In this document: positions 11,520 to 16,547 of the stretch, in pieces
How the letters are laid out: each line of letters begins with the position of its first letter
Position numbering within the stretch: position 1 is the stretch's first letter
Origin: Candidatus Helarchaeota ASGARD archaeon Hel_GB_B
GTDB taxonomy: Archaea > Asgardarchaeota > Lokiarchaeia > Helarchaeales > HEL-GB-B
Assembly (NCBI GenBank): GCA_005191425.1
Contig: SUPR01000057.1
Coordinates: 1 to 23,593 of the forward strand
DNA length: 23,593 nucleotides
Reading direction: 5' to 3'
Program-made: the position numbers and the translations under genes
The notes under the pieces: generated by a model
The model's input: only the letters and a program-made list of their open reading frames with translations
The model's database searches: none
Told to the model about the DNA's origin: nothing

Positions 11520-12101
11520 TTATTTTTTCTCTTTTTTGGTAATAATAACCTCATATCTATTATCTCCAGCAGCTAAGGATTTAGTTACGAATGATGTTAA
11601 ATCCTTATTAACTGCGTTCACTAGACCATCTTCCCAAGAAACAAAACCTTGGCAGACTTCCGGGCATTTCATTCCTCTATGAGGACATTTATATGGACGA
11701 CCAGGAAAAGAAATGGAAACGGTATCTTTAGAATGAATTTTCACTTCAGGCTGATTTTGAGGATAAATGTGTTTTTCCCACCCAGATAACCCAAATAAAA
11801 CATAGAAAAACATTATTAATTGCATAGCTTTTAATGCATCATTTTTGTTATCGAATATTGGGTCTTTTAGATATTTTTTCCCATAATAATATCCGATAGG
11901 AAACCCTGCCCTTCTTGTAGCTTCTATAAAAGAGTCCTTATAGAACCTACTACAAATCCAATTTATAGCTGAGCCAGAAAATGAACCTGTAAATTCAAGA
12001 TATGCTTTAATTGGGTGTCTAATAAATTTATTGAAGCAATAAATAGGGTGAATAAAAAGTTTGAAAGTCTTGACAAAAATAATTTTAAGTGAATATGCCA
12101 T
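11520..12101 (-). CDS. V4R / ATC-hydrolase-like small-molecule-binding domain protein
   Basis: C-terminal KCPH...CPEVCQGF..WEDGLVNAVN..L....TKSLAAGDNRYEVII resembles the V4R/ATC hydrolase CP...C...G..C pattern, with the last Cys replaced by Tyr. Confidence 0.65.
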   Translation of the reverse strand: MAYSLKIIFVKTFKLFIHPIYCFNKFIRHPIKAYLEFTGSFSGSAINWICSRFYKDSFIEATRRAGFPIGYYYGKKYLKDPIFDNKNDALKAMQLIMFFYVLFGLSGWEKHIYPQNQPEVKIHSKDTVSISFPGRPYKCPHRGMKCPEVCQGFVSWEDGLVNAVNKDLTSFVTKSLAAGDNRYEVIITKKEKK

Positions 12102-12119
12102 TAATTGGGGTAAAAAATA

Positions 12120-12476
12120 TCACCCTAAATTTTTACGTGCTTCTCGACTTCCAGATCGTAATAATAAATGCCAAAAATATGCTCGGTCCTTCCATGTTAT
12201 TCTACTTTTAAGTTTAATAACATCTTCAGAAAGCCAGTCGGGTGGAACTTTTTCAATTTCCCATGCTTCATATAAATTTTTAGAAGTAATCCGATTCAAT
12301 AATTTTATAGGTATATGGGTTATTTTGAATAAGGATAAAATAAAACCGCGACTTGCTGAAATATTAATATAGGACTCACTTCTATTAAAAATAAAGAATA
12401 CTATTACAAGAATTAACAATGTAGGAAATGCATATGGAAAAATTTGAATTAACATATCAATTATTTTCATCAACAA
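12120..12476 (-). CDS. Hypothetical single-pass membrane protein
   Basis: N-terminal TM IFPYAFPTLLILVIVFFIF, then a basic soluble region. Gaps of 8 and 18 nt to its neighbours suggest an operon. Confidence 0.7.
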   Translation of the reverse strand: MLMKIIDMLIQIFPYAFPTLLILVIVFFIFNRSESYINISASRGFILSLFKITHIPIKLLNRITSKNLYEAWEIEKVPPDWLSEDVIKLKSRITWKDRAYFWHLLLRSGSREARKNLG

Positions 12477-12484
12477 CTATTAAG

Positions 12485-13369
12485 TTATATTTCATCTTCA
12501 ATAAAAGGACAATTAGAATCCCTCATTTGATTTATTCTTAAAAGAACACTTTTATACAATATTTCCATAAAATTTTGGACTTTTTCATTATAAATAACTC
12601 CATAAACTTTTCTGTTTAAAATTTTTTCAATTAATTCGGGTTTTAAATAGTTTTTTTCACCATAATGCAAGCCAATTACAAGACATAATGCAAATGGATT
12701 ATGTTTATAAAGCATTGGTAAAATTTTTGTTTTTATTTTTGTTACATCAATAGAATCCGAATCTGAAATTATTAAAAAACCATAAACATCTTTTATAAAT
12801 TCTAATATGATAGGTGCAGGTCGGTCTGAAATTAAATTTTCAAATATCGGTTTTGAAATAATGCACAATTCAATTAATAATTGGGGAAATGTTTCTAAAA
12901 TTTTACACTGGCAATTTTTTAAAAAATCAACTTCAATAACCTCACCTTGTATTTTGTGAAAAATTTCGCTAATTTCCTGATCATTAAATCCTAAAATAAT
13001 AAATTTTATTCTTTTTATTTGTTCTTTTAATTGTAATTTTATTTCTTCAATATCTATTTTTTCTGGATATTCTATTATTGTCAGTATTTTACCTAAACGC
13101 GAAATATCTTCATTGGTAAGATATTCCATGTCATTCCAAATATATTCTGTAGGTGAAATATCTATATATATAGTCTTATTACAATCAAGGTCACATTTAA
13201 AGCAACTGGGGTACTCTACTTCAATTAAATTCCCCCACAAATATATTTTAAATAATAAGTCTTCTTTATTTATTATGATATATTCATCTTTCCTAATATT
13301 AAGTCCCATTTCATTAATTATTTTTTCTATAATTTGCCTTCTTTTTAATTTTTGCTTGTTCATTTTCAT
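12485..13369 (-). CDS. Hypothetical protein with a degenerate Ras-like small GTPase fold (pseudo-GTPase) in the C-terminal half
   Basis: Strand order IKFIILG / ELCII / IKDVYGFLIISDS / LCLVIG / NEKVQNFMEILYK parallels small GTPases, but the G1, G3, G4 and G5 motifs are not intact. Confidence 0.55.
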   Translation of the reverse strand: MKMNKQKLKRRQIIEKIINEMGLNIRKDEYIIINKEDLLFKIYLWGNLIEVEYPSCFKCDLDCNKTIYIDISPTEYIWNDMEYLTNEDISRLGKILTIIEYPEKIDIEEIKLQLKEQIKRIKFIILGFNDQEISEIFHKIQGEVIEVDFLKNCQCKILETFPQLLIELCIISKPIFENLISDRPAPIILEFIKDVYGFLIISDSDSIDVTKIKTKILPMLYKHNPFALCLVIGLHYGEKNYLKPELIEKILNRKVYGVIYNEKVQNFMEILYKSVLLRINQMRDSNCPFIEDEI

Positions 13370-13555: not shown

Positions 13556-14245
13556 ATGGCTAATAGATTTAAACCATGGAGTGTGGAAAGAGAAATACCA
13601 AACACAGATTGTACAATTCAAGTTGGGGATATTAATGGTAAATGGGCGGTAGTAATAAGAAAAAAACTCAATGATGGAAATAAAAAGGCATTAGCTCTTA
13701 AAAAAATCCAAAAATTGACAGATACGAATATAATAAATGTTATAAAAGACACTATCGGAAAACAATATTCACTGGACACTTTTACACTCGGGTCTACAAT
13801 GAGCGTAATTTTAAGAGAGGTTTATGATAAAATAAAAAGTCACGGTGAGTCAAAAGCCACACCCCAAACAGAGAAGACCCTTAAACAGCCTGCTACGACA
13901 CAATCTAATGTAAAACCTATTTCTTCAATTCCTACTCCTAAAAAAAGAGAAGCAGACTCGTTTTGGTCCTCTTATGATGCAGCTAGCAGTTATACATATC
14001 CGCAAAACAATGTACCTCCTCAGCAACCTGTATCAGATAGTACTACCTCTTTACAACCATCTCAGACTCAGCAATATATACCGCAAGCTACATCTCAGCC
14101 ACCTGAAACTACCCCAGATTCTGATGAATCTTCCGATTTAGATGCCATTTTGGGAGATTTAGGTCTTAGTTGCCCATATTGTGGCGCAGAAATTGGCCCG
14201 GATGATGAAATCTGTCCTCGTTGTGGTAAAAAAATACCACTCTAA
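13556..14245 (+). CDS. Hypothetical protein: N-terminal globular domain, P/Q/S/T-rich disordered linker, C-terminal zinc ribbon
   Basis: C-terminal CPYCGAEIGPDDEICPRCGKKI (zinc_ribbon_2-like) and a low-complexity linker such as NNVPPQQPVSDSTTSLQPSQTQQYIPQATSQPPETTP. Confidence 0.85.
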   Translation: MANRFKPWSVEREIPNTDCTIQVGDINGKWAVVIRKKLNDGNKKALALKKIQKLTDTNIINVIKDTIGKQYSLDTFTLGSTMSVILREVYDKIKSHGESKATPQTEKTLKQPATTQSNVKPISSIPTPKKREADSFWSSYDAASSYTYPQNNVPPQQPVSDSTTSLQPSQTQQYIPQATSQPPETTPDSDESSDLDAILGDLGLSCPYCGAEIGPDDEICPRCGKKIPL

Positions 14246-14275: not shown

Positions 14276-14770
14276 TCAAGTTAATTTTATTTGTAATAAT
14301 TGGTCAATTCTTTTCTTTAATAATTCAATATACTGTGAATTATCTATACTAGTCAATGGGGATTTGCAATATGGACATTTAAACATACAATCAAATGCAA
14401 TAAAATACGGGTATCTTTTACCACATTTCTCACAAATAAAATATGTTTGATTAGTTTCTACCTCTAATAATTCTCTTAACTGTTTAATACTCTTTGATAT
14501 CTTACGATTAATTACCCAATCAATCGAATTTTTCCTTAACTCCCAGTAAATTGTTTCATTATCGATTTTTTTGTATGATATTAATCCTAAATCAAATAAA
14601 TCATACAATATTTTTAATATACTCCGTTGGTTCATCTTTAAATCTGACATTAATTCTTCAGTAGTTAATTTTTGATTTCTGCTCAATATATCTAGAACCT
14701 TTTTATAATAGAAATTTTTTCTTGAATCCATTTCATCTTTAAATAATACCTTAATTTCCTTAAAGTTCAA
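14276..14770 (-). CDS. tfe: Transcription factor E alpha subunit (TFE / TFIIE-alpha homolog)
   Basis: wHTH LTTEELMSDLKMNQRSILKILYDLFDLGLISYKK, then YW, a coiled coil and the Zn ribbon YFICEKCGKRY...AFDCMFKCPYCKSPLTSIDNS. Confidence 0.88.
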   Translation of the reverse strand: MNFKEIKVLFKDEMDSRKNFYYKKVLDILSRNQKLTTEELMSDLKMNQRSILKILYDLFDLGLISYKKIDNETIYWELRKNSIDWVINRKISKSIKQLRELLEVETNQTYFICEKCGKRYPYFIAFDCMFKCPYCKSPLTSIDNSQYIELLKKRIDQLLQIKLT

Positions 14771-15050
14771 AAATTACACCCTACATTTTCTATTATTGTT
14801 TATTCTTTTCTTAAAAACTGATGATAATTTCTAAATTTTAAAGCAATTTTTTCTAAGTATTTAATATTTATAAATTTTATTTCAAATTATTCGGAAATTC
14901 CTCATAAATTTATTATCTACTTTCTTAATAATTAAAATAATTTATTTCTAAATCATATTATTATTTTAAAATAAATTTCGAATTCTAAAGAAAAAACATG
15001 TTATTTTTAATTTAAAAATTTTTAATTTCTTTGTTAAAATGAGTAAATTA

Positions 15051-16547
15051 TCAATAATTTTTAACATAATTTTTGTATTTTTTAAATCCTTCATCCCAAA
15101 ATGATCTCTCTTCAGGTCTAAAAGTAATAATATTTTGTGAATTTCTAACAATTTTCCTGATTTCCTTTAAAGATTTAATATTATATTCGTTATATGCTTG
15201 AATTAATAGATTTCCTATTGCAGTAGCTTCAATCGGGCCTGCTTTTACTGTAATACCAGTTGCATTTGCAGTGAATTGTGATAAAGCTGAATTCTGGGCA
15301 CCCCCACCTACAATATAAATGGTCTTAAAAGTTTTCATTGGAAAAATTTCTTTAATATTTTTATAAATTTCCCGATATCTAAATGCAATACTTTCCAATA
15401 TACACCTAACCATTTCTCCTTTTTTATGAGGAATTTTTTGTCCTGTTTTTTTACAAAAGTCTTTAATAGCTTGCGGCATATCTATTGGATTTAAAAAGTC
15501 AGGCGAATCTGGATATATAAAGAATGAAAATGGTTTAATACTTGGGTCTAAAGCCTCTTCTGTAAGTTTTGAAAACGTCATTTTTTTTCCAGATTTCTCT
15601 TCCCAAATTCTCCTACATTCTTGAATTAGCCAAAAACATGTAATATTTTTTAAAAACCTAATAGTCCCAAAAACTCCACCCTCATTAGTAAAATTATATT
15701 TCAGTGCATTCTCAGAGGTATTCGGTTCATTAAGTTCAGTACCAAATAATGCCCAAGTACCAGAGCTAATATACAAAAAATCTTTTTCATCAAATGGTAC
15801 TGGAACTGAAACAATAGCTGAAGCCGTGTCATGAGTAGCTGGCGCAATTATTTTCAAATTTTTATTAATACCAGTTTCTGTCGAAATTGATCCCAATATT
15901 TTCCCTATTATAGATCCGGGCTCTATAATTTTTGGAAATATCTTTTTAGGAAATCCAAACTCTTCGATTAATTTATATGACCAATCTTTTGTTTTCAAGT
16001 CTAAAAGCTGACTTGTCGTGGCTATTGTATATTCAGAAAATTTTTTACCCGTTAATAGATAATTAAAAAAATCTGCAATCATCAAAAATTTATCTGCAAT
16101 ATTTAGAAAATGATTTTCATAAATTTTTGAAGAATATAACTGAAATAATGAATTTATTTGCATAAATTGGATCCCTGTAATTTTAAATATTTTTTTAGGA
16201 GGTACTACCTTAAAAGCTATGTCCATTATATTATTGGTCCTTTTATCTCGATAATGATATGGATTGCTTATTAAACGGCCATTCTTGTCCAACAATACAA
16301 AATCAACACCCCATGTATCAATACCACAAGTTCTCAATTTTCCTTTTTTCGATTGTACGCTTAGTGCCTTTTTTATCTCACTATAAAAGCCAAGAATATC
16401 CCAGTAAATTGAGTCTAATACTTTTACACCACCTGTAGTAAAGCGATAAATCTCTTTTATTTTAAGTTTGCCGTTTTCTAACTTACCTGCTATTGCTCTT
16501 GCATTTGAAGCTCCAAAATCAAAAGCTAAGTGCTCCGCATCTTCCAT
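15051..16547 (-). CDS. rhaB: Rhamnulokinase-like FGGY family sugar kinase
   Basis: LAFDFGASNAR, GIDTWGVDFVLLD, YHYRDKRT, TGIQFMQINSLFQL, HDTASA, YISSGTWAL, NFTNEGG, RFLKNITCFWLIQEC, VGGGAQN, GPIEATAIGN. Confidence 0.88.
   Translation of the reverse strand: MEDAEHLAFDFGASNARAIAGKLENGKLKIKEIYRFTTGGVKVLDSIYWDILGFYSEIKKALSVQSKKGKLRTCGIDTWGVDFVLLDKNGRLISNPYHYRDKRTNNIMDIAFKVVPPKKIFKITGIQFMQINSLFQLYSSKIYENHFLNIADKFLMIADFFNYLLTGKKFSEYTIATTSQLLDLKTKDWSYKLIEEFGFPKKIFPKIIEPGSIIGKILGSISTETGINKNLKIIAPATHDTASAIVSVPVPFDEKDFLYISSGTWALFGTELNEPNTSENALKYNFTNEGGVFGTIRFLKNITCFWLIQECRRIWEEKSGKKMTFSKLTEEALDPSIKPFSFFIYPDSPDFLNPIDMPQAIKDFCKKTGQKIPHKKGEMVRCILESIAFRYREIYKNIKEIFPMKTFKTIYIVGGGAQNSALSQFTANATGITVKAGPIEATAIGNLLIQAYNEYNIKSLKEIRKIVRNSQNIITFRPEERSFWDEGFKKYKNYVKNY

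Follow-up and report, generated by a model that had tools for sequence, protein, structure and literature searches.

A conserved pseudoGTPase-like protein with a four-cysteine domain in Helarchaeota-type Asgard archaea

The locus and its features

We analyzed a stretch of 23,593 nt (the window) that covers positions 1 to 23,593 of contig SUPR01000057.1 of Candidatus Helarchaeota archaeon Hel_GB_B (GCA_005191425.1) and has a G+C content of ~27%. A gene of 294 codons on the minus strand is followed by a co-directional gene for a membrane protein and faces a divergent gene for a zinc-ribbon protein. According to Pfam, the window also encodes archaeal TFE-alpha, an FGGY kinase, an arginase-family protein and a short-chain dehydrogenase. 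The features discussed here are as follows.

12485..13369, minus strand: the whole gene, 294 aa plus stop, a cysteine domain followed by a predicted pseudoGTPase domain (ORF, translation, full-length orthologs, AlphaFold2 model)
13016..13369, minus strand: N-terminal domain, residues 1-118 (stand-alone model)
13175..13204, minus strand: CxxCxxDCxK motif, read as CFKCDLDCNK, residues 56-65 (C56, C59, D62, C63 and K65; invariant in the family)
12518..13015, minus strand: domain of small-GTPase fold, residues 119-284 (VIA-align, Foldseek, Pfam-positive orthologs)
12968..13000, minus strand: former G1/P-loop, residues 124-134, with GFN..EI where GxxxxGK[ST] is expected (ortholog column alignment)
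12848..12868, minus strand: former G3 and start of switch II, LCIISKP, residues 168-174, DxxG gone (ortholog alignment)
12656..12679, minus strand: former G4, VIGLHYGE, residues 231-238, with LHYG where relatives have NKQD (ortholog alignment)
12587..12610, minus strand: former G5, a deletion of two residues where relatives have SA (ortholog alignment)
12809..12928, minus strand: end of switch I, interswitch and switch II, including the conserved ETFPQL and RPAP; a candidate fixed binding face (clade conservation)
12509..12511, minus strand: C287, the fourth invariant cysteine, just past the last helix (invariant in all members)
11520..12476, minus strand: downstream membrane protein of ~316 aa with a Cys-bearing C-terminal end (co-directional, 8-bp gap)
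13556..14245, plus strand: divergent protein of 229 aa with a conserved N-domain, a P/Q-rich linker and a C-terminal zinc ribbon (Pfam Zn_ribbon, alignment)

Full-length copies of the 294-aa protein, either identical or 51-60% identical, occur in many independent assemblies, and the gene is therefore real. The strings in which a first-pass annotation had read eroded G-motifs (ILGFNDQEIS, LCIISKP and VIGLHYG), together with CFKCDLDC in the N-terminal half, are all present where it had placed them; the span that it had described (12485-13010) corresponds to the G-domain half of the ORF, residues about 120-294. The positions of the G-motifs given above were set by alignment to orthologs with canonical G1, G4 and G5 rather than by eye. 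This alignment bears out the erosion of G1, G3 and G4 and the missing SAK, with the two-residue deletion at G5.

Fold of the C-terminal domain

The window protein itself has no Pfam match at E values up to 1, and a PDB sequence search returned nothing useful, just chance matches to RIO2 at E 0.5. We modelled the whole protein with AlphaFold2 from 13 family sequences (mean pLDDT 89.7, pTM 0.78). In the model, the C-terminal half has the six-stranded sheet and five helices of a small G domain. Foldseek placed residues about 115-288 close to Arf1, Arf2 and Sec4 (E about 4e-7), and VIA-align of residues 115-288 gave Z scores of 14-15 against Rab11, Ypt1, Sec4, Arf and Ran, with an rmsd of 2.5-3.5 over 145-162 residues. 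Z was at least 8 for every one of the 999 top structural matches that were re-aligned, and each of the 50 rows listed was a small GTPase. The AlphaFold and Foldseek check that had been proposed for the small-GTPase fold thus came out in its favour. A receiver or other Rossmann-like fold, named in advance as the outcome that would speak against it, was rejected because the 50 structural matches listed were all small GTPases.

At the level of sequence, the Ras superfamily is reached through full-length homologs that are positive for the Pfam Arf profile (phmmer E down to 1.7e-31). With respect to the Arf family proper, the window protein lacks the N-terminal amphipathic helix before the G domain, having a globular domain of 118 residues before strand 1, and it does not reach the PF00025 gathering score (no match).

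The motif loss is conserved in one lineage

Relatives gathered by word-indexed and exhaustive HMMER searches fell into two groups. The first consists of eight proteins, 51-60% identical, with the same replaced motifs as the window protein, whose closest database relatives are labelled as Candidatus Helarchaeota or Lokiarchaeota MAGs. The second consists of P0010-P0014 and genome copies in G123 and G124, which are 24-33% identical over the full length and match the window protein full length in phmmer at E values from 1.7e-31 to 4e-16. The proteins of this second group have a canonical P-loop (G..VGK[ST]), NK[QS]D at G4 and SA at G5; P0010-P0013 pass the gathering cut-off of Pfam Arf (PF00025) with 27-34 bits, and one ortholog is named "Rab family GTPase" by NCBI. 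Among the relatives, P0011 alone has a canonical G3 (DYGG); the rest have DYG[AKT] or no motif at all. Since G3 is mostly degenerate even in the motif-bearing group, the family seems to have been atypical before the full loss of its motifs.

All eight motif-less orthologs are full length and share 44 invariant columns, and GFN..EI replaces the P-loop GxxxxGK[ST] in every one of them. Pairwise identity in the G1, G4 and G5 segments is 0.55, 0.65 and 0.53 within this clade and 0.53, 0.61 and 0.53 within the motif-bearing group, but just 0.23-0.27 between the two. The former motif segments are therefore conserved in a different pattern, with new residues fixed at the old sites. Within the clade, the interswitch and switch II reach a pairwise identity of 0.59-0.64, compared with 0.54 overall; F161 and P186 are invariant across the whole family.

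A maximum-likelihood tree, for which two canonical GTPases of the window's genome served as the root, unites the motif-less proteins in one clade (support 100/100) on a long stem of 1.32 changes per column, and the motif-bearing proteins do not form a single clade under this root. The alignment and the tree together indicate a single loss of the nucleotide motifs in the ancestor of the window's lineage. The orthologs of the sister families keep the motifs and pass the Pfam Arf cut-off, which suggests that the ancestor was a real GTPase. The ortholog alignment that the first-pass annotation had proposed as a check thus showed the loss to be common to all eight close orthologs. Its own counter-scenario, orthologs with intact motifs beside a simply decaying copy, held in its first part but not in its second: such orthologs exist, and the copy is not decaying. 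Because these orthologs are single-copy counterparts in other families of the order, the difference points to a lineage-wide shift of function rather than decay.

We surveyed 400 Asgard genomes for full-length matches at E values up to 1e-20, with seven genomes in the window's order and 393 outside it. The cysteine domain-GTPase family was found in six of the seven genomes of this Helarchaeota-type order and in none of the 393 others, each time as one full-length member; the seventh genome (G127) is without it. The copies are motif-less in family f1 (the window's genome and G126) and motif-bearing in families f2 (G123-G125) and f3 (G128). The pseudoGTPase family, its cysteine domain and the pair of motif-bearing and motif-less orthologs are thus specific to the order.

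Besides its one full-length member, the window's genome encodes at least nine ordinary small GTPases, whose match is limited to the G domain. The idea that a motif-less copy lies beside a motif-bearing paralog in the same genome was ruled out by the single full-length member per genome. Separately, a gene at C19:43515-44423 of the same genome is one of several fusions of an N-terminal domain to a GTPase; at G1 it reads GK and then R, DxxG is missing and NKQD is intact, and it may be a partly degenerate GTPase.

The cysteine domain and its putative metal site

Modelled alone, residues 1-118 gave a pLDDT of 89.3 and a fold of one helix, four strands and two helices. The structural searches with this domain returned only weak matches. 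The best Foldseek hit against the PDB had an E of 0.48. A VIA-wide search gave a best Z of 4.9 and no match with Z of 5 or more, with RWD/UEV/UBC (E2)-like rows recurring weakly, all at Z of 4.9 or less. In the ESM Atlas, the feature search gave no usable match and the shape search only unrelated bacterial clusters (TM 0.36-0.58). The cysteine pattern matches no Pfam profile, and a profile search for other architectures with this domain recovered only proteins of ~300 aa from the family described above and from a second family treated below. The four-cysteine domain is previously undescribed, and it was found just fused to GTPase-like domains, in both domain orders.

C56, C59, D62, C63 and K65 are invariant in 13-15 members over both clades, between which overall identity is only 27%. 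C287, which lies three residues past the last helix, is likewise invariant in both clades. The protein thus offers the four conserved ligands of a cysteine metal-binding domain (C56, C59, C63 and C287), and when the second family is added, C56 and C59 stay invariant and C63 nearly so. Judged from this conservation, a four-cysteine metal site is likely, in which C56, C59, C63 and C287 would be the ligands of one ion.

In the second family, the order of the two domains is reversed. G127 encodes a 301-aa protein in which a Ras/Roc-profile domain with degenerate motifs is followed by the same cysteine domain; hhalign aligned the cysteine domains of the two families with a probability of 96.5% (E 8e-10). 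This family comprises P0019-P0028, and one of its copies lies on contig C96 of the window's genome. Its fourth invariant cysteine comes right after the last helix of the cysteine domain, in a context (NQI....C.KF) that resembles the C-terminus of the window protein (NQM....CPF). This position directly behind the domain points to a four-cysteine metal site. Similar to the window family, the reversed-order family joins the cysteine domain to a Ras-like domain with degenerate motifs, but it has the G-like domain first and the cysteine domain last, still scores above the Pfam Ras and Roc thresholds and keeps a partial G1 (K[ST]) and G4 (N..D).

The copy on contig C96 (C96:17909-18802; L043 1282-2397, minus strand) is a 371-aa paralog in which a Ras/Roc-profile domain with degenerate G1, G3 and G4 precedes the cysteine domain. 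It is likely a second pseudoGTPase of the genome.

Neighbouring genes

The divergent neighbour has a conserved N-domain of ~95 aa and an invariant D.FWS.Y motif inside its P/Q-rich linker. Its head-to-head arrangement with the GTPase-like gene was seen in G000, G126, G123, G124, G125, L001, L002, L004 and L035-L038, that is, at all f1 loci that we looked at and in each of the three f2 genomes; in G128, the zinc-ribbon gene is located elsewhere, and the pair is thus absent. This zinc-ribbon family occurs in 7/7 genomes of the order and in 0/393 other Asgard genomes. A complex prediction for the pseudoGTPase with residues 1-145 of the zinc-ribbon protein scored 0.00 in both runs, a result counted neither for nor against binding. 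As a separate matter, the gene order FGGY kinase, TFE-alpha, zinc-ribbon gene and pseudoGTPase (window 14276-16547; L001, L002, L004 and L035) is kept across several Helarchaeota-type assemblies.

The downstream membrane-protein gene is adjacent in f1, adjacent but convergent in G128 (f3) and located elsewhere in f2. Its family, too, is present in 7/7 genomes of the order and 0/393 elsewhere, so that the pseudoGTPase, zinc-ribbon and membrane-protein families share the same order-restricted phyletic range. In the window, an in-frame TGA at 12120-12122 (minus strand) splits the gene into ORFs of 118 and 193 aa. Two sibling assemblies of the same population have AGA (Arg) at this codon, and the orthologs are all unbroken, single ORFs of 314-331 aa. 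Either a nonsense variant at the strain level or an error of assembly accounts for the TGA, and the locus is not a three-gene operon. Selenocysteine or another recoding at this codon was rejected on account of the AGA in the sibling assemblies and of the variability of the residue among the orthologs.

The C-terminal part of the downstream protein has conserved Cys and a V4R-like GD..CE ending. Three of the seven orthologs gave weak ATC_hydrolase matches, and a true V4R protein gives a similarly weak match. Comparison by hhalign with two V4R proteins of the same genome was weak (probability 26% over 22 residues), no PF02830 match appeared at E values up to 1, and a profile search against the PDB gave nothing. 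Assignment of the downstream protein to V4R is therefore only tentative.

Proposed mechanism and alternative explanations

With a GTPase fold, lost G-motifs and maintenance under selection, the window protein has the features of a nucleotide-free pseudoGTPase, and the retained fold and the clade-wide conservation of the loss support the pseudo-GTPase proposed at first pass, as far as alignments and models can tell. Based on these data, we provide a putative mechanism. The ancestor would have been an order-specific Rab/Arf-type GTPase composed of a four-cysteine N-terminal domain and a G domain. In the ancestor of the window's lineage, the P-loop, NKxD and SA would have been lost once, after which purifying selection would have held the fold and both domains. 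As the motifs suggest, the protein would no longer bind guanine nucleotide; instead of switching, it would serve permanently as a scaffold or adaptor. A fixed binding surface may be provided by the interswitch and switch II face; these parts are among the better conserved of the motif-less clade, which fits a frozen effector-type surface. C56, C59 and C63 together with C287 may hold one metal (Zn or an Fe-S cluster) that would clamp the two domains and connect the end of the G domain on its C-terminal side to the N-domain. Synteny and distribution suggest that the likeliest partners would be the divergent zinc-ribbon protein and the co-directional membrane protein with the V4R-like end; the latter would bring the complex to the membrane. 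We consider this explanation as a whole (a conserved pseudoGTPase whose motifs were lost once and that now acts as a nucleotide-free scaffold or adaptor with a metal clamp and neighbouring partners) to be probable.

A less probable explanation, which still deserves some weight, is that the functional center of the protein is the four-cysteine site. The protein would then be a module that responds to metal or redox conditions, as an Fe-S or Zn sensor of an anaerobe might; its conformation would be set by the redox or metal state and not by nucleotide, and the G-shaped domain would be just a structural platform. No features are conserved more strictly than the cysteine motif and C287, in both clades and in the reversed-order family, and the cysteine domain persists beside G domains with and without their motifs. 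The arrangement C-x2-C-x3-C plus a distal cysteine fits Zn or a cubane cluster. However, the cysteine pattern has no Pfam profile behind it, and the strong conservation of the interswitch and switch II argues for a binding function of the G-shaped domain. Additionally, this explanation overlaps with the pseudoGTPase scaffold favoured above rather than excluding it.

We also speculate, at a somewhat lower probability still, that a membrane-bound complex is built around the motif-less protein as its fixed core and imitates a GEF on a nucleotide-free Rab. The membrane protein would be co-transcribed with the pseudoGTPase, and its V4R/TRAPP-Bet3-like end would grip the pseudoGTPase permanently, as TRAPP holds empty Ypt1, and the four-cysteine metal site would replace the nucleotide in setting or sensing the conformation. 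If true, an archaeal trafficking-type switch would have turned into a scaffold, with its still-switching ancestor alive in the sister families.

It is improbable that the protein still binds nucleotide in a noncanonical way and works as a slow or regulated switch like Rnd or the N-terminal domain of p190RhoGAP. The relatives do tolerate a degenerate G3 while keeping G1, G4 and G5, which speaks for an unusual chemistry of the family, and pseudoenzymes with migrated residues are known (PMC10211241). However, the P-loop Lys and Ser/Thr, the Asn and Asp of NKxD and the SA of G5 are all gone, G5 carries a deletion, and the eight orthologs have no compensating conserved Lys or Asp at the motif sites.

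We attach very little weight to the explanation that the window gene is a decaying copy, or pseudogene, of an ordinary Asgard GTPase. The absence of all catalytic motifs and the long stem branch to the motif-less clade would agree with it, but full-length ORFs persist in at least eight divergent lineages from several assemblies, the 44 invariant columns and the replacement residues at the motif sites are conserved, and the window copy is the sole family member in its genome. Finally, a C-terminal half of another alpha/beta fold (receiver or generic Rossmann-like) that does not derive from a GTPase can practically be dismissed: the window protein has no Pfam or PDB sequence match of its own, but the Z scores of at least 8 for the 999 re-aligned structures, the 50 small-GTPase rows and the strong full-length homology to Arf-profile-positive proteins speak against it.

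Comparison with known systems

The nearest comparison is with the motif-bearing orthologs (P0010-P0014 and the copies in G123, G124, G125 and G128). They share the architecture, the length, the four invariant cysteines and the single copy with the window clade, and in f2 also the divergent zinc-ribbon neighbour; unlike the window clade, they retain GxxxxGK[ST], NK[QS]D and SA and score above the Pfam Arf threshold. Such a pair of living orthologs with the same architecture, and in one family the same neighbour, may serve as a natural before-and-after of the change from switch to scaffold.

The Rab/Arf-like GTPases of Asgard archaea (ArfR/AArf and Thor-Rab; bioRxiv 10.1101/2024.02.28.582541, PMC11914678, PMC10933270) have the same G-domain fold, and the window protein also has, following strand 4, the DS motif characteristic of Arf-like proteins. 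In contrast to them, the window protein has a 118-aa cysteine domain, no amphipathic helix and no nucleotide motifs. Its homologs place the window protein, by descent, within the Asgard Rab/Arf-like radiation. The only derivatives mentioned in the ArfR preprint are unannotated and fast-evolving (bioRxiv 10.1101/2024.02.28.582541).

Similar to the window protein, CENP-M, the pG1 and pG2 domains of p190RhoGAP and the G domain of the dynein light intermediate chain (PMC10211241) have kept the fold and lost the G-motifs. These nucleotide-free pseudoGTPases of eukaryotes are conserved as scaffolds for protein interaction, as we suppose for the window protein. Unlike them, the window protein would have an independent archaeal origin and is fused to a cysteine domain, and the transition from active to motif-less is visible here between living orthologs.

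To our knowledge, pseudoGTPases have been described almost exclusively from eukaryotes. A full-text literature search for pseudoGTPase and archaea found no archaeal case, only general reviews of pseudoenzymes and pseudokinases, which agrees with the remark at first pass that archaeal examples are little characterized. The alignments and the model suggest that, in the archaea most closely related to eukaryotes, a switch of the Rab/Arf type has become a nucleotide-free module, and our analysis points out two order-specific candidate partners for it.

A last comparison concerns V4R/TRAPP-Bet3-like proteins paired with Rab GTPases. Similar to such pairs, true V4R genes adjoin Ras-like genes in the window's own genome (contig C105) and in G127 (L042), and the downstream membrane protein has the V4R-like GD..CE end; unlike V4R proteins, the downstream protein is without a PF02830 match. 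In the own-genome example (L032, C105:24900-26500), a V4R gene of 199 aa overlaps the gene of a 180-aa Rab-like GTPase by 4 bases; this GTPase is canonical (Pfam Ras, E 4.5e-49), and the pair looks like a V4R-GTPase operon. In G127 (L042, C1:198500-203500), a double-V4R gene (PF02830, E 1.7e-23) lies directly upstream of the gene for the reversed-order protein, and the row continues with a RING/zinc-ribbon-like protein (sub-threshold matches) and a 343-aa AAA-ATPase-like ORF, presumably, from its look by eye, a proteasome-activating nucleotidase.
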